From the NCBI GenBank assembly GCA_000383715.1, contig KB912045.1, positions 14,801 through 78,800 of the forward strand: a DNA stretch of 64,000 nucleotides, written 5' to 3'. The translations under genes were made by a program, and so were the position numbers. This document shows positions 8,882 to 37,604 of this stretch, piece after piece. A model generated the notes under the pieces. The model had not been told where the DNA came from. It saw nothing but the letters and a program-made list of their open reading frames with translations, and ran no database searches. Within the stretch, counting starts at the first letter, position 1. Each line of letters opens with the position of its first letter. This DNA is from Verrucomicrobia bacterium SCGC AAA164-E04. Its GTDB lineage: Bacteria; Verrucomicrobiota; Verrucomicrobiia; Limisphaerales; AAA164-E04.

Positions 8882-10435
8882 TTACTGCAAGTGGATCGGC
8901 AGACTGTTCATGATGAATTTCTGACTCGCCATGATCCCGCCCGTTTGCTCGGAGAGGACATTATTGCCGAACTTGAATCTTGTGGTGGTTTCAATGGATT
9001 TCAATACAGCACAATGCGTGTCGTTGACCATGATGCCAAGTAATTCGCCAGTTTTGCTAAATACCAAATCGCCGCGTGAAGGAGAAAATTTGCCTACCAG
9101 CTTACGAAAGGCTTGCTTCTCCATTTTTACATAATCTGGATTCTGAGTATCCAACTTGAATTCAGCTTCTCCGTAGTAACCATCCTGAGCCCCAACAAGG
9201 ACGGCTTCCTGGAATTTGAAGGGGTTTTCAGCCAGGTGATAAATTTTACCGCCAAGCACATCGGCTTGTTTTGCCCCAACCGGAACCACAAGGATTCGAG
9301 GGTCGGCCTCAATACAAGACATGAGTGCTATGGAATAGGCTTTTTGAGAGCGATTAACAACACCGGTCAACTGTTCCCAATTTGATTCTCCCTGCCAGAT
9401 TCTGAATGGTGTGCCTTCGACATGATACAAAGCGTAAATAGTGTCTCCATCTCTAACGAGCACACTGTTGGTCTCACTTTCTTTATTAATCGCCTGACCA
9501 AACAATCCACTCCGTGCGGCAAAAAATCGCGTTGTGATACGATTTTCAACGAAATCATTGTATATCGTATTGGCTGCTAGCGGGGTATTGCTGCGAATGT
9601 CTTCCCTGATCTCTTCCGATTTTGCGGTCAGATTTTCTACCCCAACTGCCAACGCATCAGCATGATCTTGAACCCGTTCTTTTTCTTCACGAACAACGGC
9701 CACTTCTTCCTTGGCTCCAGCAAGCTGTTCTCTTGAATATTCGACATCGGCTCTTGCAACGCTTATTTCATCTTTGGCTGCATCGTAATATTCACGAATG
9801 ATCACCTCAGCCGTTTGAGATTGTTTTAATTCCAGTGCCAACTGGAATTTCTGTTCTTCAGCAGCCTTTCTTTCCTTCTCCAAATCATCCATTTTACCCT
9901 GCATTTGCTTTGCTTCCTGCCGACGTACTTGCAGTTCGGATTGTATGGTTTCCAATCGAGCTCTTGAGTCGTTAGCCTGAACGGTCGAAGTGCTCAAATT
10001 TTGCTGCAGTTGCTTTGCCTCGTTCTTCACGCTGACGTATTGCTCCTGAAGAAAAGCGACGTTTTTCTGCGTGTCGTCGTATTGCTGCTTGAGCATTGTG
10101 CGGTCGCGCTGTAACTGACTGGCTTTACGCTCTACATTTTCAAGGTTGTTTTCAATCGATTCAATTCTAATTTCCTTTTCAGCAAGAACGGTCTCCTTGT
10201 TTTGGAGACTGTCCTGCATGGATTGCAACTCTCTGGTGAGGACATCTCTGGATTGGCGTTCCTCTTGAAGAGCCATTTTGAGAGCTTCCATCATATCCTG
10301 GGCTCCCTGCACTTCATCAACTTCGGTCAGTTCGGACTCGTCTGGTTCGGCTGGAGCTTGTTGGTCAAATCGTGCCAATGAAAGCAGGCTTATCAGGAGA
10401 AAATCACAGATAATGATGAGCAATGGTTTGTTCAT
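8882..10435 (-). CDS. membrane-anchored coiled-coil protein with a globular C-terminal domain (hypothetical; possible MotB/TolR/ExbD-like anchor)
   Basis: 517 aa. N-terminus is MNK + PLLIIICDFLLISLLSL, a TM with an embedded Asp. About 250 aa of E/Q/K/L-rich heptad sequence follow, then a roughly 230-aa non-repetitive C-terminal domain. ATGA overlap with the upstream gene at 10432-10435. Confidence 0.6.
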   Translation of the reverse strand: MNKPLLIIICDFLLISLLSLARFDQQAPAEPDESELTEVDEVQGAQDMMEALKMALQEERQSRDVLTRELQSMQDSLQNKETVLAEKEIRIESIENNLENVERKASQLQRDRTMLKQQYDDTQKNVAFLQEQYVSVKNEAKQLQQNLSTSTVQANDSRARLETIQSELQVRRQEAKQMQGKMDDLEKERKAAEEQKFQLALELKQSQTAEVIIREYYDAAKDEISVARADVEYSREQLAGAKEEVAVVREEKERVQDHADALAVGVENLTAKSEEIREDIRSNTPLAANTIYNDFVENRITTRFFAARSGLFGQAINKESETNSVLVRDGDTIYALYHVEGTPFRIWQGESNWEQLTGVVNRSQKAYSIALMSCIEADPRILVVPVGAKQADVLGGKIYHLAENPFKFQEAVLVGAQDGYYGEAEFKLDTQNPDYVKMEKQAFRKLVGKFSPSRGDLVFSKTGELLGIMVNDTHCAVLKSIETTTRFKFGNNVLSEQTGGIMASQKFIMNSLPIHLQ

Positions 10436-12081
10436 GCTCTTTCAGTTTCGTTTTCAACAATAAGTTTACGACGGTATGGACGCACATGGAAAATTTTCAG
10501 TGCAGACACAAATATGATACCAAATAAAGTGGAAGAATAAGCTGCCATTAACCCCGGTTTTACAATACCCAGCGCTAGCATCACCAGAGACAGAACCGTA
10601 CCTCCAAGTCCAAGATAGAGCCCTGAGTCGAATAAGTTTTCTTCGTTATCCAGAAGCCGCAATTTCAAGCGACTATGCGCTTCCTGTTTTTTGATTTCTT
10701 TCAATTTAACCAGGCATAATGCGTAGGTGCATACCTGAACCAGAAAAAACAGAACCAGCGCAATAATGGTGATTTGTGTTATTTTTGTTTCCATAATTGA
10801 TTCAACGTCATCCGTAACAGCGGACTGCATGACCGGAAATCTCCATGTGGTCGTATTTTCCACCTTTTTTGAGTCCTGCGCAAGAAAAGGTTCTCCCAGG
10901 ACTATTACGAAAACCAGAAAGACGAGGGCCAGGATTTGCTGACGCAAAAAACCGATTCCATCCACCTGCATTTGCTCGCTGGCATCTTCCGGTTCCGGCT
11001 TGAGTTGATGGAGAAATCGTAAAATAAAAAAACTTCCAAACAAATACAGGAGATATTTGATCAACAGAGCAAACATCGGCATGCGGAGGGTCAGCTTGCA
11101 TAATTGTACTGATGGCGCATGAAACAACCCATAACTGCGGAGCCATTCGCGTGTAGAGGAAACAAAAACGGGTTCCTGTCTTTGTAACAAATGTCTCAGG
11201 GCCTCCTGCCCGTGGACGATGCCGAGTTGAATATCCCTGGGAGCTGTCTCAGGAAATTTTCTCAGGTAATCAGCCAGCAAGCCTCCCGACTCAGCGAACC
11301 GCAGCGAAGAGAAAACCCTGGGCAACATTTCTTCGGAACGCATCGCATGATGTGTGAGCGTGCGAAGAGTCTCAACAGATTCTACTTTTTGTATGAATGT
11401 CGTTAGTTGCCCCCAGTTCATGCGCTTGCTAAGAGACAAAATATCAAGACACATCGCTTCAAGATGCCGTGTATTTTTCCCAAGATTCACTTGGGCTGCT
11501 AGTAGTTCAACCTGTTGGCCAAACTCAGAACTCAGATGATCTTCCTGATATAAAAGACCTATCAATAGCAGTGCCGAATCGAAAGGTTGTCCGCCAGCAC
11601 TGGCAACAGGGTAAAACACATTCAAAGACTGTAAATTTCGATTTTTCAGTATTGTTTGAACTCCGGGCCGATTTGATTGCTGGAGATGATTCAAAACTGA
11701 TTTGCGGAAATTACTGGCCACCATCCACCCAAGCACGAACCTTGAATTTGAAGGATTACTGTCAAGAAACCGCTTGATCAGAGCATCGGAATCTCCTTGT
11801 TGAAATCCTTTAGGATCCTGACTTCGATATTTTCCGAGTGCTTCTTCAAGCTCTTTTACGTCATCCAAAGCGTTGAACCGAGCGCTTTGAAAAAGGAGGT
11901 GCGCGGGGCCTGATTTCTCCAGGCGTAGCAAGGAAAACCCTTCGCTGATCAATTCAGGTTTACCTCCTGCTATCCGCAAGACGTCAGAGTCAACTGACCT
12001 TAAATAGGCAGGGGTCATCACAGCACTCAGCAGTAATGCTGACCCTAGCAGGAAATAGGTGATGGCCTTGAGCTTTTTCAT
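10432..12081 (-). CDS. polytopic membrane protein with a MotA/TolQ/ExbB-like C-terminal helix pair (hypothetical)
   Basis: The track start 12129 is a TTG codon. I prefer ATG 12081 (MKKLKAITYFLLGSALLLSAVM...). Roughly 330-aa helical domain, then about 5 TM segments. The last two (GLYLGLGGTVLSLVMLALGIVKPGLMAAYSSTLFGIIFVSALKIF) resemble the TolQ/ExbB signature. Confidence 0.55.
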   Translation of the reverse strand: MKKLKAITYFLLGSALLLSAVMTPAYLRSVDSDVLRIAGGKPELISEGFSLLRLEKSGPAHLLFQSARFNALDDVKELEEALGKYRSQDPKGFQQGDSDALIKRFLDSNPSNSRFVLGWMVASNFRKSVLNHLQQSNRPGVQTILKNRNLQSLNVFYPVASAGGQPFDSALLLIGLLYQEDHLSSEFGQQVELLAAQVNLGKNTRHLEAMCLDILSLSKRMNWGQLTTFIQKVESVETLRTLTHHAMRSEEMLPRVFSSLRFAESGGLLADYLRKFPETAPRDIQLGIVHGQEALRHLLQRQEPVFVSSTREWLRSYGLFHAPSVQLCKLTLRMPMFALLIKYLLYLFGSFFILRFLHQLKPEPEDASEQMQVDGIGFLRQQILALVFLVFVIVLGEPFLAQDSKKVENTTTWRFPVMQSAVTDDVESIMETKITQITIIALVLFFLVQVCTYALCLVKLKEIKKQEAHSRLKLRLLDNEENLFDSGLYLGLGGTVLSLVMLALGIVKPGLMAAYSSTLFGIIFVSALKIFHVRPYRRKLIVENETERA

Positions 12082-12464
12082 CAAATTGTTTGAGACATAA
12101 GCAATTCCCTTGTGATAAATCAATGGCAATGTTTGAGCGCCTCAACATTATCCCGTTGCGGCTTAATGCTTATTTGACGAGACCATCATCATTGCCATTC
12201 ATTGAGAGGTGGCAGTGATCAAAATTAGGCTTTACCATGATGCAGACCATATCCGATCAACTAACCTGCAATTTCCAGTTAAACCCTTTCGTTCAACTCC
12301 TTGTCTCTCTTTGAAGTTGTAATGCTGAATGAGTAATAAATCTCCAGTGGAAGTCTCAGGACATTCTTTCTTGGCGAAGTGAGGCAAGTAAACTGCTTCA
12401 GCTAATGATTTTAATGCATTGAGGCCCTCAATGTTGACTGAAGTAAGACCATTTATCAATGCAG

Positions 12465-24969: not shown

Positions 24970-26355
24970 ATGCGTAACGCTGCGGAAATCATATGGAACA
25001 GGGCTGTTAAAAAGCTCAAATCCATGCTGAACGATGAGGTTTACAAACTTTGGTTTGCTCCTATTGTTCCTCTACAGATTGAAAACAACGTGTTGATACT
25101 GCAAGTCGCGAATGATTTCTGTGAGGTTTGGCTTAAAGATAACTACCACCAGCTTTTGGAAGAAGTAGTCAGCGGTTCCTCGGATGAAAGGCTGGGGATC
25201 GCTTATAAAGTTGGATCCGCAAAAGCGTCTTCAGTTAAGACAGACACCAAGACTTCCGCACCGAAAGCCTCGATATCTGAAAAATCACAATCTCTAGGCG
25301 AGTCCTTGAAACCGGAAAACAAAAGTGTTCCGGCTAGGAATGGTTTCAATCCGTTATACACCTTTGATTCCTTCGTGATCGGGGGAAACAACAGAATGGC
25401 GCACAGTGCTTCCCTTGCGGTTGCACAATCACCGGGAAAATCTTATAACCCTCTGTTTCTCTATGGCGGCGTTGGACTTGGGAAAACGCACCTTTTACAC
25501 GCCATAGGTCACCACGTCTTATCAAAAAAACCCAACGCACGCGTGGCTTACCTTTCATGCGAAAAATTCACAAATGAATTCATCGACGGTATTCAAAATA
25601 ATCAGTTGGTGAAATTTCGTAAGCGTTACCGTCTGACCGATGTTCTATTGATCGATGACATCCAGTTTCTTTCAGGCAAAGAAAGGATTCAGGAGGAGTT
25701 TTTTCATACCTTCAATGCCTTACACGAAGCTCACAAACAAATCGTTTTGAGCTGTGATCGACCAGCCTGTGAAATCGATGGGCTCGAACAACGCCTGAGT
25801 TCCAGGTTCGAATGGGGGCTATCAGCGGATCTTCAGGCACCTGACGTTGAAACCAGGCTTGCGATTCTTCTTAAGAAGAAAAAATCCTTGGATGTGGATC
25901 TACCTCGTGATGTGGTTGAATTTATTGCCAACAACATCAGGGCAAATATACGGCGACTTGAAGGGGCTTTACTCAGGGTAGCAGCCTTTGCTTCCTTGAC
26001 GAAACAGGAATTGACCGTTGAGCTTGCCGAGCAATTGTTGCGAGATGCCCTACAAGAGGAAGGACGAGCAACCGTCAATATTGACGATATTCAAAAGAAA
26101 GTAGCGGAACATTACGATATCCGTTTAGCAGACATGACCAGTCGTCGAAGACCCGAATACATTGCTTTCCCTAGACAGATTGCCATGTATTTGTCCCGCC
26201 AACTGACCGAAAGCTCTTTAAATGTCATTGGAACGGCCTTTGGTGGTCGCGATCATGGCACCGTTATGCATGCCTGCCGGCTAGTTAAGGACAGAATGGA
26301 GATGGATGCAAGTGTAAGACAGGCAGTAACATACTTAGAACGCCATCTACGCTAA
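24970..26355 (+). CDS. dnaA: chromosomal replication initiator protein DnaA
   Basis: 461 aa. Walker A YGGVGLGKTHLLHAIG, LLIDDIQFLSGKERIQEEFFHTFN, sensor/box VII SCDRPA, and a C-terminal DNA-binding domain IAFPRQIAMYLSRQLT...IGTAFGGRDHGTVMHACR. Confidence 0.97.
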   Translation: MRNAAEIIWNRAVKKLKSMLNDEVYKLWFAPIVPLQIENNVLILQVANDFCEVWLKDNYHQLLEEVVSGSSDERLGIAYKVGSAKASSVKTDTKTSAPKASISEKSQSLGESLKPENKSVPARNGFNPLYTFDSFVIGGNNRMAHSASLAVAQSPGKSYNPLFLYGGVGLGKTHLLHAIGHHVLSKKPNARVAYLSCEKFTNEFIDGIQNNQLVKFRKRYRLTDVLLIDDIQFLSGKERIQEEFFHTFNALHEAHKQIVLSCDRPACEIDGLEQRLSSRFEWGLSADLQAPDVETRLAILLKKKKSLDVDLPRDVVEFIANNIRANIRRLEGALLRVAAFASLTKQELTVELAEQLLRDALQEEGRATVNIDDIQKKVAEHYDIRLADMTSRRRPEYIAFPRQIAMYLSRQLTESSLNVIGTAFGGRDHGTVMHACRLVKDRMEMDASVRQAVTYLERHLR

Positions 26356-33447: not shown

Positions 33448-33980
33448 TGTTAAAATTATTTAATCCAAAATAAATCAAGCCTAACCATTGTGTGTTCAGG
33501 GGTAAAAACCAGATCCACTGCTTGCAGAAATATGCAAAAACATTCATGGCCCTCAAAATCTAGATGTGATGACGTCCATTCGAGGTTACTGGTTTATTAC
33601 TGGTGAAAACAGCAACAAAACTTGCGGTCATCCTGCGTGATATATCTGGTCTAATCAAATCATCTCTTGACCCTTTACAATCGCACTGTTGGCTAAAACT
33701 TAGCCCTTTAGCCCCATGAGGATTAAAGGGGATATCAACAGACCCAGGTTACCTGGCTGCCGTCATCTCAAAACTTGCTAATCAAGTTTGCGATCGAACC
33801 TATCCATACTTTTCTCTCAAGCACGAAAAAAAATGTCGCCACGAATTTCATGATGTCGAAATACCACAGGGAAATGTATGTCCGGGTTGGCCAGCAAAAC
33901 AAGATGGATTGATAAGGCCTTGTCCGCTCCGCTAATGCCATGCGACTCTCAGGCAAAGCCAACATGATGACATCGATTCA

Positions 33981-34009
33981 TTGACAATCAGTTTCTACTC
34001 TTCATATTT
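33981..34009 (+). promoter_or_regulatory. sigma-70-like promoter candidate for the exonuclease-ligase pair
   Basis: TTGACA (33981-33986), a 16-17 nt spacer, then cATATTt. About 50 nt upstream of ATG 34057. By-eye match only. Confidence 0.3.
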
Positions 34010-34056
34010 GTGCTCAATCAGCTCAATCATTTCTTTATGAAAACCATGCCAAATAG

Positions 34057-35061
34057 ATGTTGATCCGGCCCACTCCATCTGGATTGTATTGTGAACAAGG
34101 TGATTTTTACATCGATCCGAAGCGAAAGGTCAATCGAGCTGTCATCACCCACGCTCATTCTGATCACGCGCGTCGAGGTTCCGAACAGTATCTATGCAGC
34201 AAACCATGTGAACCGCTCCTCAGATTGAGACTTGGTAAAAATATTTCCCTGCAGGCACTGGAATATGGGGCTTCCACATCCATTTCTGGTGTCATTATAT
34301 CATTTCACCCAGCGGGACATATTTTGGGATCTGCGCAAATAAGGGTAGAATACAAAGGGGAAGTTTGGGTGGTGAGCGGAGACTACAAAACATATCCAGA
34401 TCCGACCTGTGCTCCATTTGAGCCCTTGCGCTGCCATACCTTCATTTCAGAATGCACTTTTGGATATCCCATTTATCGATGGCCAGACCCCAATCACGAA
34501 TGGAATCACCTGAAAAAATGGTGGAAAACAAACCGTGAGGCAGGGTTGAGCAGCGTCATCAATGCTTATTCCCTTGGAAAAGCCCAACGTGTATTGAATG
34601 CACTGAAGGATTCCGAGCAGACTATTTTGGTTCATTCAGCCATCCTGAGTTTTTTACCATTTTACATATCCGAGGGCGTTTTATTTCCTGAAGTAATGGA
34701 AGCTACACCCGAGAACGTCATGCGCTACCGGGACGAATCCCTGATCATCAGTCCTCCTTCAAGCAGGATGGAAAAAAGTCTGGGAGATCCATGCTCCTGG
34801 CAATCCTTGGATGTTTCCGGGTGGGCTCAAATCCGCAGTCAAAAAAGAAAAAAAAACTTACCCAATGGATTGATTGTTTCAGATCATGCTGACTGGGAAG
34901 GTCTTTGTCAGGCTATTCGAGCAACCGAGGCAGAACATACCTTCCTGACCCATGGGGATGGCTCTGTTCTATCCCGATGGCTAACTGAAAAAGGTTTATC
35001 TGTATCTCAACTGCCTGAAAAAATTCCTGCCTCCTCCTTGTATGCGTCTCAAATCATCTAA
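34057..35061 (+). CDS. ligase-associated DNA damage response exonuclease (MBL / beta-CASP fold)
   Basis: MLIRPTPSGLYCEQGDFYIDP...AVITHAHSDHARRG (HxHxDH). About 334 aa. Sits immediately upstream of an ATP-dependent-ligase homologue, as in the ligase-associated damage-response cluster. Confidence 0.8.
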   Translation: MLIRPTPSGLYCEQGDFYIDPKRKVNRAVITHAHSDHARRGSEQYLCSKPCEPLLRLRLGKNISLQALEYGASTSISGVIISFHPAGHILGSAQIRVEYKGEVWVVSGDYKTYPDPTCAPFEPLRCHTFISECTFGYPIYRWPDPNHEWNHLKKWWKTNREAGLSSVINAYSLGKAQRVLNALKDSEQTILVHSAILSFLPFYISEGVLFPEVMEATPENVMRYRDESLIISPPSSRMEKSLGDPCSWQSLDVSGWAQIRSQKRKKNLPNGLIVSDHADWEGLCQAIRATEAEHTFLTHGDGSVLSRWLTEKGLSVSQLPEKIPASSLYASQII

Positions 35062-35079
35062 CTTAGAGGAACCTCACGC

Positions 35080-36777
35080 ATGCAACGTTTACAACAATTG
35101 ATTGAAAACCTTGATACCGCCGCTAGTGACGCTATCAAGCTTCAAGAGTTGAAATCCTATTTAAGTTCAATCCCCCCCGAGGATGCTGCTTGGGCCTTGT
35201 TCTTTTTTGAAAATAGAAGACTAAAAACCAAGACAGGCCTGAGATTATTGAAAGAGGTCATTGAATCACAAACTTGCTTCCCCGATTGGGTCATCCAAGC
35301 TTGTAATGAGCGTGTTAAAGACACTCCGGAAACGTTGGCCTTACTCTTTGCAAGTAAGGGTGGCAGATGCGAAATAAGCCTTTCCACACTGGTAATCCAG
35401 TTTCTGCAGCCACTCTCTGGATTTACCCGGCTTTCTAAAAAAGAAACAATTCGCTGTGCATGGGAAATGCTTAGCACTACACAACGTGTCCTTTTCAATA
35501 AAATGATCCTTGGCGGGTTCCAATTAGGCGCGCAAAAGTCGCTTATCCATGAAGCACTTTCTAAGATTTCGGGAATTCCCAGGAGTGTCATATCCCGACG
35601 CCTCATTGAAGATTGGCAACCAAGTGCAACCTGGTTTCAAAGCTTTATTGAACCAGATCCTGAAATAGATGCAGCCATGACGCCATGTCAATTTGAGCCT
35701 GTTGTCGTTTCAGAAGTGCCACCTGACAAATTGGATTTTACTCTTGGGCTGGAAGCAGCTTTCGCTTTTGATGGAGCTCGTGTACAGGGCATCAAGCGAC
35801 GGGAAGTTTCAACTATTTGGTCAGAGGAGCTGATCCCTTTGAACCTCTGTTTTCCTGAGCTAATTCGTGGCCTTTCACTCTTGCCATCCGGAACGGTATT
35901 GGAAGGCCTCATCGTTGGTTGGGATGATGATCTTCCGCCCCCACGTGAAAACGTCCAAAAGCGATTAAAAGTCAAAACCGCTACTCAGAAAACAATTCAA
36001 TCGGCTCCTGTACAGTTCCTTGTATTCGACATCATTGAACGTCATGGCATCAATTTAAGTCATTGCCCTTTCGCTCAGCGCAGGGTTGAGGTGAAGCAGG
36101 TAATGGATGAATGGTCCCATCAATGGAGCATCCACGGTAACAAGTCAGAGATAGAGGACGTTAACCCAGATTTCTTTCAGCAGGAAATGTTCGACATGTC
36201 CACCGTTCTGAAGACTGAGTCGGAAAAGTCGATTTTACCCCCGCCCATGAGCCTTTCCAGATTTTTCAAATGCAATAATTGGGCAAGTCTTGAAGGTAAG
36301 TTAAATATTTGCCGTGACAAACATGCCACTGGCCTTTTGTGCATCCCGGTGGATCCAAAGGATTACCCTCATTCAGATGAAAACAGATGGAGACTGCTCA
36401 AACCCGCATCATGCAGGGCGCGACTGGCATTGTTAAGTGCTGAACGCCTGCCTGGAAATCAAACTCACTTCATTCGATTCACCTTTGGAGCATGGCTCAA
36501 TGATTCTTTGGTTTCAGTTGCAGTTATTGGCACCCAGCATTCAAAAAAAGATTTTGAATCGCTTGGCGAATTTGTTTTGAGAAACACCCTTCAAAAGCAA
36601 GGGAACAATTTTCAGGTCAAACCAGAATTAATTTATGAGATCAGCTTTGAGGACATTCAAGAATCATCACGATCAAAATCCGGCATAAGGCTCAAGAATG
36701 CCCGGTTGTGCAAGCGATTAACAGGAGCCGGAATGAAACAAGCCTCCACAGTGGAAGAAATTAAATCGCTCATCTAG
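35080..36777 (+). CDS. ATP-dependent DNA ligase homologue (bacterial ligase-associated-cluster type) with substituted catalytic motifs
   Basis: Collinear with this ligase family from the N-terminal DNA-binding domain through the OB fold. However, motif I reads FAFDGAR (expected KxDGxR), motif III VLEGLIV, motif IV TGLLCI, motif V WRLLK. Confidence 0.8.
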   Translation: MQRLQQLIENLDTAASDAIKLQELKSYLSSIPPEDAAWALFFFENRRLKTKTGLRLLKEVIESQTCFPDWVIQACNERVKDTPETLALLFASKGGRCEISLSTLVIQFLQPLSGFTRLSKKETIRCAWEMLSTTQRVLFNKMILGGFQLGAQKSLIHEALSKISGIPRSVISRRLIEDWQPSATWFQSFIEPDPEIDAAMTPCQFEPVVVSEVPPDKLDFTLGLEAAFAFDGARVQGIKRREVSTIWSEELIPLNLCFPELIRGLSLLPSGTVLEGLIVGWDDDLPPPRENVQKRLKVKTATQKTIQSAPVQFLVFDIIERHGINLSHCPFAQRRVEVKQVMDEWSHQWSIHGNKSEIEDVNPDFFQQEMFDMSTVLKTESEKSILPPPMSLSRFFKCNNWASLEGKLNICRDKHATGLLCIPVDPKDYPHSDENRWRLLKPASCRARLALLSAERLPGNQTHFIRFTFGAWLNDSLVSVAVIGTQHSKKDFESLGEFVLRNTLQKQGNNFQVKPELIYEISFEDIQESSRSKSGIRLKNARLCKRLTGAGMKQASTVEEIKSLI

Positions 36778-37604
36778 AGTAACCCCACTTCCATGAAACA
36801 GGCTCCACCGGCTTTTCCCTGTTCGTCGTATGACCATGTGATGCATATTGTTTTTCCTTCCGGTAATTGAAGGTCAAAAACGATCCTGTCCGATCCATTG
36901 TTGAGCATCGCTTCATGAGCCTGACCGGCGATTTAAATCCCCGCAAGAACGGCTTCTAATTTTTTACCGGCTTCCTTGGGCCATTGTTGTAAGGACAATC
37001 GATAGTGGCCATGAGGGGCGTTGGCGGGCAGATAAAGAAAGAATGGATGTTCCTTGTTGCGTTCGATGAATTTTCTGAATCCACCAAACCAAACATCCGT
37101 GCAATAACCTTCAAACTTTTCATGGGATCCGTTCCTTTCGCAGGCATCATCAAAATAATCATTACCCCAATCATCCGAAGCCTGCCCCACACCGCCGCAA
37201 CGGTGCCAGACAACTTCTTGAAATCCACGGTCCTGCGGACGATGCGGGGCACATTCCCAAAGGTGTCATTTACCAATCATTCCTATGGTGTGGCCGTTTT
37301 CTGAAAACACATCAGCAATCGTGCGCTCATCAGCAGGCATCATAGTCCGCCCTGAACTCGAACGATAAGCCTCCCTGCATCCGAAATAACCACCAGTCAT
37401 TAAGGCAGCCCGTGTAAGAGTGCGGAATGGAATTATTGTGAAGTGGATCAAGGTTGGCAGTTTTGAGATAAGGATTTCCGTGCCAACTCAAGTCTCCACA
37501 ACCTTGATTATCGGTCATGATCAAAATGGCATTGAGCGCATCAGATGAACTCTGAAGCCACAGCAGGCAAACGCATAGTCATGAAAAGAAAAGAAGGTTC
37601 GCAT
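36774..37604 (-). pseudogene. sulfatase remnant (frameshifted, nonsense-interrupted, active-site motif lost, 3' half replaced or deleted)
   Basis: Sulfatase blocks appear in 3 frames: ILIMTDNQGCGDLSWHGNPYLKTANLD; RTLTRAALMTGGY where CxPSRxxLxTG is expected; GHTIGMIGK-TGA-HL (W codon now a stop); WGNDYFDD...HPFFLYLPANAPHG; then an in-frame TAA (36933-36935). Confidence 0.75.

Follow-up and report, generated by a model that had tools for sequence, protein, structure and literature searches.

A DNA ligase homologue without its adenylation lysine, probably maintained as a non-catalytic partner of the ligase-associated exonuclease in a verrucomicrobial lineage

The four-gene cluster Exo-Lig-Lhr-Core-MPE has been published under the name 'ligase-associated DNA damage response' (PMC7826289, PMC7470946). 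In its Exo-Lig(-Lhr-MPE) forms, this repair module is widespread in bacteria; what it does in the cell is unknown, and the exonuclease has yet to be characterised (PMC7470946, PMC7826289). Natural fusions of the exonuclease (Exo) and the ligase in one protein were found in Opitutus terrae (OTER_RS15935) and in an Antarctic Dry Valley metagenome cluster (PMC10140301). Herein, an Exo-ligase pair from Verrucomicrobia bacterium SCGC AAA164-E04 (contig KB912045.1) is described, which lies in an analysed stretch of 64,000 nucleotides (nt), referred to as the window. Exo is predicted to be catalytically intact, and the ligase homologue next to it, a protein of 565 amino acids (aa) referred to as the pseudo-ligase, has lost the motif residues that define a DNA ligase. 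The pseudo-ligase is probably a maintained pseudo-enzyme that serves as a non-catalytic partner of the intact Exo. No pseudo-DNA-ligase family and no lysine-less ligase was found described in the literature searched. Pseudoenzymes are common in other protein families.

The two genes are on the same strand with a spacing of 18 nt. Their positions in the window are as follows.

34057-35061, + strand: Exo gene, 334 aa, ligase-associated beta-CASP/MBL (metallo-beta-lactamase) exonuclease
35080-36777, + strand: pseudo-ligase gene, 565 aa, Lig B-fold with three domains
35080-35694, + strand: DNA-binding domain (DBD) of the pseudo-ligase
35695-36369, + strand: nucleotidyltransferase (NTase) domain of the pseudo-ligase
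36370-36774, + strand: OB domain of the pseudo-ligase

The family of the 565-aa product was determined by profile and structure comparison. PF01068 was detected at 38 bits, above its cutoff, and the N- and C-terminal ligase domains were weakly detected. The PF04675, PF01068 and PF04679 regions are collinear, giving the three-domain architecture of N-terminal DNA-binding domain, nucleotidyltransferase and OB fold. The scores for TIGR04120 (198.4 versus a cutoff of 400) and NF006701 (247.8 versus 543) are below the equivalog cutoffs; a canonical Pseudomonas ligase in the matching gene position, used as a control, scored 697.8 and 757.6. AlphaFold2 (AF2) gave a confident three-domain ligase fold, with a predicted local distance difference test (pLDDT) of 83.8 and a predicted template modelling score (pTM) of 0.75. 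When this model was searched with Foldseek, the first matches were three-domain archaeal ligases (3rr5, 2cfm), followed by human Lig1 and LigIV, with E values down to 5e-34; LigIV-Artemis structures were also among the matches. A sequence-only reading made earlier on this DNA had described the product as collinear with the ATP-dependent ligases of the ligase cluster and its reading frame as intact. The Pfam regions, the model and the Foldseek matches bear out the first statement, and the open reading frame (ORF) from 35080 to 36777 bears out the second.

The lysine of motif I (KxDGxR) in DNA ligases is the nucleophile forming ligase-AMP, and motifs III (DGE), IV (EGxxxK), V (KxK) and VI (RFPR) bind AMP, metal and pyrophosphate. 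Three alignments made independently fixed the register of these motifs: one by phmmer against solved archaeal ligases, one by MAFFT within the family, and one by hmmalign to a family profile. In the phmmer alignment, motif I of the query reads AAFA--FDGARVQ versus AAFEIKYDGARVQ of the solved archaeal ligases. All three alignments agree on Ala229 at the lysine position. The remnants of the motifs are as follows.

35761-35781, + strand: motif I remnant FAFDGAR, with Ala229 (GCT, 35764-35766) at the adenylation-lysine position
35896-35916, + strand: motif III remnant VLEGLIV, D to E and E to L
36328-36345, + strand: motif IV remnant TGLLCI, E to T and K to I
36388-36402, + strand: motif V remnant WRLLK, first K to L
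36685-36705, + strand: motif VI remnant IRLKNAR, expected RFPR lost (RFPR to KNAR)

The missing lysine and the substitutions in motifs III, IV, V and VI are exactly those that the sequence-only reading had stated. At the key positions of motifs III, IV, V and VI, the pseudo-ligase has EL, TI, LK and KR, and all canonical ligases found next to Exo (55/55) have DE, EK, KK and RR. The motif I lysine position is occupied by A, N or L in all members of the clade formed by the pseudo-ligase and its orthologues. These losses predict that the pseudo-ligase is no longer able to self-adenylate or to seal nicks. Database labels for the orthologues are 'DNA ligase-1' at JGI and hypothetical at NCBI. Judged by its sequence, the product fails the tests that define Lig B: its score is under the cutoff, motif I has no lysine, and motifs III-VI are degenerate. 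To file or annotate it as a DNA ligase is therefore unwarranted.

The upstream gene had been read as an MBL exonuclease that keeps HAHSDH, and this was confirmed by a TIGR04122 score of 406.6 bits versus a cutoff of 325. HAHSDH (HxHxDH) occupies aa 32-37 (34150-34167), and the other metal ligands and the beta-CASP motifs A, B and C were all found, so that 11 of 11 metal-binding or beta-CASP residues are present (D20, H32, H34, D36, H37, H88, D109, E132, D276, H277 and H299). The AF2 model of Exo (pLDDT 85, pTM 0.83) had CPSF73 as its top Foldseek match (E 3e-15, TM 0.75), and SNM1A (E 7e-12), TTHA0252 and RNase J were also matched. Exo is accordingly a predicted active nuclease, with its catalytic residues intact.

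The orthologues of the pseudo-ligase were compared for length, catalytic residues and genomic position. Homologues at 98, 87, 63, 62, 59, 51, 48, 38 and 37% identity are 565-573 aa long and carry A or N at the lysine position, with similar further losses. The same catalytic losses were found in orthologues at 96, 95, 92, 87, 63, 51, 38 and 31% identity, which are Exo-linked and largely syntenic in position. The gene order of the clade is dnaA, ABC, aminotransferase, clpX, clpP, PALP, GGT, Exo, pseudo-ligase, sugar-binding protein and shikimate dehydrogenase. A metagenome scan yielded 7 further clade loci at 96-29% identity, and 7 of 7 are lysine-less. Over the orthologous loci, 12 of 12 (96 to 29% identity) are without the motif I lysine and have full-length frames; a complete ORF of 548-573 aa is present in 9 of the 12, and the match in L090 spans the entire query. 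Exo is upstream of the pseudo-ligase in the metagenome loci L088, L089, L091 and L092, and the contigs of L090 and L093 end short of the region. Exo is thus directly 5' of the pseudo-ligase in every clade locus that reaches and cleanly assembles this region.

Two observations on single metagenome loci are added. In L087, a 4.6-kb contig with a pseudo-ligase 96% identical to that of the window, Exo is broken up: aa 1-165 are on the opposite strand (28-543, - strand), aa 277-334 are in place (1493-1666, + strand), and the middle is absent. Either the contig is a chimera of the assembly, or Exo is really disrupted in one population. In L092 (3116-4795) and L093 (38-1528), the most divergent clade members at about 30% identity (P0038-like), the motif I Arg is also lost (LPEGIH), and NPDC[VM]QQEMF is kept.

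Selection was measured as omega, the ratio of nonsynonymous to synonymous substitution rates (dN/dS). For the closest pair of pseudo-ligases, omega is 0.25 (bootstrap 95% confidence interval 0.17-0.35), or 0.18 in the DBD, 0.27 in the NTase domain and 0.18 in the OB domain. Five close relatives give ten pairs, and all ten have omega values of 0.17-0.28, with dS of 0.09-0.29. The omega of Exo is 0.25-0.28, from which the range of the pseudo-ligase is indistinguishable. All three domains of the pseudo-ligase are under purifying selection. An internal control is provided by the sulfatase remnant that the sequence-only reading had noticed at the 3' end, and that was resolved into two fragments with a frameshift.

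36777-37518, - strand: sulfatase pseudogene; of the 546 aa of the intact orthologue, only aa 1-197 and 469-546 are left, and a frameshift lies close to the 5' end

The sulfatase is intact in more distant relatives and decayed in the window. This indicates that real pseudogenes do decay in this lineage. The last aligned codon of the remnant ends at 36777, the final base of the pseudo-ligase stop codon. The intact sulfatase orthologue (L002 11695-13335) overlaps the pseudo-ligase 3' end by 28 nt (L002 11695-11722).

Expression signals were also searched for upstream of both genes, and the following two were read from the sequence.

33981-34008, + strand: putative sigma-70-type promoter of the Exo/ligase-like operon, TTGACA, 16-nt spacer, CATATT
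35066-35070, + strand: Shine-Dalgarno GAGGA, 9 nt 5' of the ligase-like ATG

The promoter is the top promoter-like site of the region, with 10 of 12 matches. When five loci were compared (the window and L001-L004, including the most divergent orthologous locus), the promoter block GATTGACAA...CTCTxCATATT was unchanged in all of them. Exo and the pseudo-ligase apparently share this one promoter. The sequence-only reading had left two options for the lysine-less gene, a recent inactivation or a maintained pseudo-enzyme, to be separated by dN/dS and by the conservation of the substitutions. The catalytic losses shared by syntenic orthologues, the low omega, and the conserved promoter and Shine-Dalgarno strongly support the maintained pseudo-enzyme and exclude the recent inactivation.

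The loss of the lysine was followed through the ligase family. Exhaustive searching with a profile recovered 867 relatives with E <= 1e-30. The motif I lysine is missing in 66 of the 184 sequences examined, with many different replacements and a graded loss of other catalytic positions; this sample was drawn with a lysine-less profile, and 66/184 overstates the prevalence. In the Exo-anchored sample described below, decayed ligases make up 2 of 59, around 3%. Neighbour-joining and parsimony gave around 30 state changes from a lysine-bearing root, with the window clade as one monophyletic lysine-less group; the figure is rough, coming from the lysine-less-profile sample and a tree of very divergent sequences, and supports the word 'recurrent' rather than a number. 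A profile built from 29 diverse lysine-less sequences retrieved canonical, lysine-bearing ligases only (120 of 120), as expected for independent decays from a canonical ancestor; what the decayed sequences have in common as a consensus is the canonical ligase. By these comparisons, lysine loss is recurrent across many lineages of the ligase family. In three further decayed lineages (the P0016 group with L005-L006, L023 and L055), the ligase homologue likewise comes immediately 3' of a bona fide Exo.

Some of these decayed homologues are shortened. The homologues at 10001-11458 of L005/L006 and at 11011-12462 of L055 are two independent cases of 483-485 aa without the C-terminal OB/motif VI part. 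Their motif I regions read EWDWIGQ and LWLWDG, respectively, and each is the next gene after a bona fide Exo. A QGELF loop motif is retained in the P0016 group.

The gene content of Exo loci was surveyed by probing with the exonuclease instead of the ligase, and 80 loci of named reference genomes were collected. A ligase gene is found 3' of Exo in 59 of the 80. These 59 ligases comprise 55 that are fully canonical, 2 with canonical residues in split ORFs, and 2 that are decayed (L023 of the Limisphaerales and L055 of the Saprospiraceae). The two split ligases (L019 11149-12806 and L025 10965-12757) are each divided into two ORFs, which may be frameshifts or true pseudogenes of ligases of the active type. 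The Lhr and PdeM proteins of L065, verified at 1112 bits (Lhr) and 222 bits (PdeM), were used as references for the other two members of the four-gene cluster. Within the fetched flanks of 10 kb, an Lhr-type helicase was found in 24 and PdeM in 17 of the 59 Exo-ligase loci. In 35 of the 59, neither is present within 10 kb, a majority even with fully canonical ligases; the same holds for P0011 and one Pseudomonas locus. A jackhmmer search with the L065 queries found neither the Lhr-Core helicase (TIGR04121) nor PdeM/MPE (TIGR04123) in the 64-kb window or in L001-L006, and a phmmer search with the same two queries found neither in L087-L093. The helicase and the phosphoesterase are thus missing from the neighbourhood, as the sequence-only reading had observed. 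Its description of the locus as a module reduced to two genes is misleading, since most canonical pairs also lack both genes within 10 kb. In the surveyed genomes, an Exo-ligase pair by itself is common and is a normal form of the four-gene cluster, not one peculiar to the window locus.

Other genes stand beside Exo in loci without a ligase. In Cyclobacteriaceae-type loci (L048 9318-9977, with equivalents in L056, L079, L083 and L085), the ligase-less Exo is directly preceded by an ORF of 207-219 aa without an NCBIfam match. In the Planctomycetaceae loci L044 and L072, an ORF of 650-668 aa without an NCBIfam match is upstream of the ligase-less Exo. Both kinds of ORF may be alternative Exo partners.

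The pseudo-ligase also differs from canonical ligases by an inserted loop, which carries a short motif.

36112-36264, + strand: subfamily-specific 51-aa loop insertion between motifs IIIa and IV; the loop of canonical relatives is about 11 aa
36163-36192, + strand: NPDFFQQEMF, in which QQEMF (aa 367-371, 36178-36192) is a candidate beta-clamp-binding motif

The loop peptide carrying the candidate motif is NPDFFQQEMFDMS. The loop core (aa 357-384) is the only segment of the AF2 model with pLDDT below 50, which is a prediction of accessibility only. QQEMF is invariant across the clade, and its flank NPD[FVIC][FMV] is nearly so. Distant relatives with and without the lysine have insertions of 32-58 aa at the same place, otherwise unrelated in sequence, with the core Q-x-x-[L/M/F]-F. 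The variants are QLQLF, QLRLF, QLTLF, QLKLF, QADLF, QAELF, QGELF, QGDLF and QQELF, among which conservation is restricted to positions 1, 4 and 5. Of 32 independent insertions, 19 contain Qxx[LM]F, compared with an expectation of 0.5 from shuffled sequences (at most 4 in 2000 shuffles). Per 1000 aa, the motif occurs 14.6 times within the insertion and 0.077 times in the rest of the same proteins, a 190-fold enrichment. The literature searched contained no report of a clamp motif in Lig B-type ligases. Among the classic clients of clamps are ligases and nucleases, and PCNA or clamps recruit both in other systems. The clamp-binding consensus is QL[SD]LF or QxxLF, with positions 1, 4 and 5 critical, and QADMF of E. 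coli DnaE (Pol III alpha) binds the clamp with a Kd (dissociation constant) of 0.8 uM (PMC12309361). QQEMF matches this pentapeptide pattern (QL[SD]LF / QxxLF). A revised consensus, Q-phi-x-[LM]-[FL], has an aliphatic residue at position 2, and RecB illustrates that a motif match can fail, as its QALRF does not bind the clamp and its QVEMEF does (bioRxiv 10.1101/2025.08.20.671105).

A mechanism can be proposed from these observations. The Lig B-type DBD-NTase-OB scaffold has lost the residues for nucleotidyl transfer and would have been kept as the non-catalytic partner of Exo. The scaffold may still recognise DNA discontinuities such as nicks, gaps and ends, and may position or regulate Exo there; the two proteins would then form one nuclease, with the scaffold as the subunit that targets DNA. 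The natural Exo-ligase fusions and the LigIV-Artemis precedent make a physical partnership plausible. The NPDFFQQEMF loop would dock into the hydrophobic pocket of the beta sliding clamp, and Exo would be brought to clamp-marked DNA intermediates. It is quite possible, while short of probable, that the loop peptide tethers the pseudo-ligase and Exo to the sliding clamp in this way.

The pseudo-ligase could also be a maintained Exo partner whose Qxx[LM]F loop is an Exo-docking peptide, a site for another partner, or a structural element, and not a clamp motif. Such a role would explain why the clade block EW.HQW..HG...NPDFFQQEMF is longer than a clamp peptide requires, and AF2 places a weak helix at 363-369. 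Many variants have Gln or Gly at position 2, away from the aliphatic preference (bioRxiv 10.1101/2025.08.20.671105). However, only positions 1, 4 and 5 are conserved in distant relatives and one group has a perfect QLxLF, which is the pattern of a clamp ligand (PMC12309361). The 190-fold concentration of the motif in the loop of a ligase that is paired with a nuclease, both being classic kinds of clamp client, also speaks for the clamp, and the non-clamp role is judged rather unlikely.

The positions kept, lost and gained were counted by comparing the clade with the 55 canonical ligases adjoining Exo in reference genomes, where canonical-conserved means conserved in at least 90%. Kept are 55 positions conserved in both sets, mainly in the core and including G232, R234, FPE, D317, G418 and W437. 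Lost are 68 canonical-conserved positions, including every catalytic one, and 38 of them are in the OB domain. Gained are 39 positions conserved in the clade only, 21 in the DBD and around 15 in the inserted loop; the 21 new DBD positions fit a new binding surface. Exo keeps 75 of 87 canonical-conserved positions and every catalytic residue. By this comparison, the Exo of the pair stays a predicted enzyme and the ligase becomes something else.

The gained positions would also be expected if the protein had been neo-functionalised, that is, if it had acquired a new and unrelated activity or ligand on the DBD or the inserted loop, independent of Exo. Q107, F108, T123-C126 (R125 and C126 included) and H157 are among the clade-only DBD positions, H352 and D364 are among those of the insertion, and the DBD is the most constrained domain (omega 0.08-0.18). 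This explanation is improbable: the ligase homologue is always paired with Exo in four lineages that decayed independently, fusions of Exo and ligase occur naturally (PMC10140301), and there is no match to other families in Pfam, NCBIfam or PADLOC.

The kept positions raise another question, whether the protein retains ligase or nucleotidyltransferase activity by means of a non-canonical nucleophile or of an active site provided in trans. The whole fold is kept, with G232, R234, D317, G418 and W437 of the NTase core, and some annotated pseudoenzymes later proved to be active. However, five motifs were lost together, which removes the nucleophile, the metal and ribose ligands, the adenine-contacting lysine and the step-1 motif VI, and no lysine within residues 141-304 of the pseudo-ligase is conserved in the clade. 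The replacements also vary, with A, N or L at the lysine position and L, F, V or I at the Glu of motif III, a variation that a working alternative site would not tolerate. A still-working enzyme is very improbable.

A young pseudogene, in which a recently inactivated ligase has not yet accumulated frameshifts, would account for the disappearance of all catalytic motifs, for an omega of about 1.2, with a very broad confidence interval, around the place where motif IV had been (aa 396-430), and for the true pseudogene next door, but it is refuted to the point of being next to impossible by the same losses in intact orthologues down to 31-38% identity at a conserved genomic position, by omega values that, over the ten pairs, equal those of the predicted active Exo, and by the 39 new clade-specific positions and the conserved promoter.

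Several points weigh against the non-catalytic partnership and its clamp extension. Around a dozen of the surveyed Exo genes have no ligase neighbour at all, so Exo is not universally in need of a ligase-fold partner. The OB domain lost 38 canonical-conserved positions, and two decayed lineages (the P0016 group and L055) are without its C-terminal part; these losses indicate that the ligase-like encirclement of DNA may not persist. Position 2 of QQEMF is Gln, not the aliphatic residue of the revised consensus, and 11 residues around the motif are conserved in the clade, beyond the need of a clamp peptide, so that the loop could bind something else. We infer all three contacts of the pseudo-ligase, with DNA, with Exo and with the clamp. 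With these points counted, a maintained non-catalytic partner of Exo is still the probable role of the pseudo-ligase.

Two further ideas on the locus were dropped. For TGTTC-N4-GAACA, which we take to be the Verrucomicrobia LexA box, 35 matches with at most 2 mismatches were found versus 38 expected by chance, and none is near the promoter; SOS regulation of the operon was dropped on these counts. Membership in a defence system was dropped since PADLOC gave no match for Exo or the pseudo-ligase. In the neighbourhood, a 600-nt spacer without genes separates GGT and Exo in the window (33448-34056), and the same spacer holds 1-3 genes in L002, L003 and L004 (PCMT methyltransferase, thioredoxin and BNR-repeat protein). 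This points to gene loss between GGT and Exo in the window/L001 lineage. Conservation in the spacer is confined to the proximal promoter block. The dnaA gene is at 24970-26355, around 8 kb 5' of the Exo/pseudo-ligase pair, and the gene that follows it is that of an ABC ATPase, not dnaN. The PALP (serine/threonine dehydratase-like) gene is split into ORFs of 123 and 184 aa in L004 (5248-6216), and the window copy is intact with 320 aa. Elsewhere in the window, two adjacent overlapping ORFs of 517 and 565 aa (8882-10435 and 10432-12129, both - strand) have no Pfam match.

Two results go beyond the sequence-only reading: the recurrent loss of the lysine in the family, and the clade-specific loop with a clamp-binding-like motif. 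A ligase homologue that is kept by selection throughout a lineage and is predicted to be unable to ligate indicates that the ligase-fold protein contributes something beyond sealing, and the most plausible contribution is recognition of DNA structure together with recruitment of a partner. The pseudo-ligase would be a natural separation-of-function allele for dissection of the pathway. The recurrent lysine loss and the 'DNA ligase-1' labels are a warning against counting such genes as ligases in repair inventories of genomes and metagenomes. The loop motif is a concrete and cheaply testable hypothesis that connects the Exo-Lig module to the sliding clamp. As a tentative extension, more doubtful than likely, the Lig B family could be an unrecognised class of beta-clamp clients through its NTase-loop motif, repeatedly turned into dead, clamp-tethered sensors of DNA discontinuities that deliver an Apollo/CPSF73-like nuclease to clamp-marked DNA. 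If this were true, the ancestral role of the ligase in the Exo-Lig pathway would be targeting at least as much as sealing.

The pseudo-ligase can finally be compared with the known systems. It shares with the canonical Lig B ligase (TIGR04120), its closest family by hidden Markov model, the DBD-NTase-OB architecture and the position directly downstream of a TIGR04122 exonuclease; it differs in lacking the adenylation lysine and key residues of motifs III-VI, in scoring half of the family cutoff, and in its 51-aa loop insertion. Unlike the published four-gene cluster, no Lhr-Core or MPE/PdeM is near it, which is equally true of most canonical pairs surveyed. The Exo-ligase fusions have the same order of an MBL nuclease followed by a Lig B-type ligase, and their linkage argues for one acting unit; the fusions are single polypeptides with a ligase presumed active, whereas here two genes are 18 nt apart and the ligase half is, by its motifs, catalytically dead. 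In human DNA ligase IV and Artemis (SNM1C), a three-domain ATP-dependent ligase is likewise the physical partner of a beta-CASP/MBL nuclease, but LigIV is active and eukaryotic, its interaction surface is not known to be homologous, and the likeness is an analogy rather than shown ancestry. The loop resembles the beta-clamp clients Pol III alpha (QADMF), Hda (QLSLPL) and RecB (QVEMEF) in having a short Q-x-x-[L/M]-F peptide, conserved at positions 1, 4 and 5 only and predicted to lie in a flexible part of the chain, and differs from them in that the candidate motif is in an internal loop of a ligase NTase domain, with Gln or Gly at position 2 in many variants. In the wider comparison, the pseudo-ligase resembles pseudoenzymes in general, such as the bacterial pseudokinases, in which a dead paralogue of an enzyme fold is selected as a scaffold or regulator (PMC12599244).

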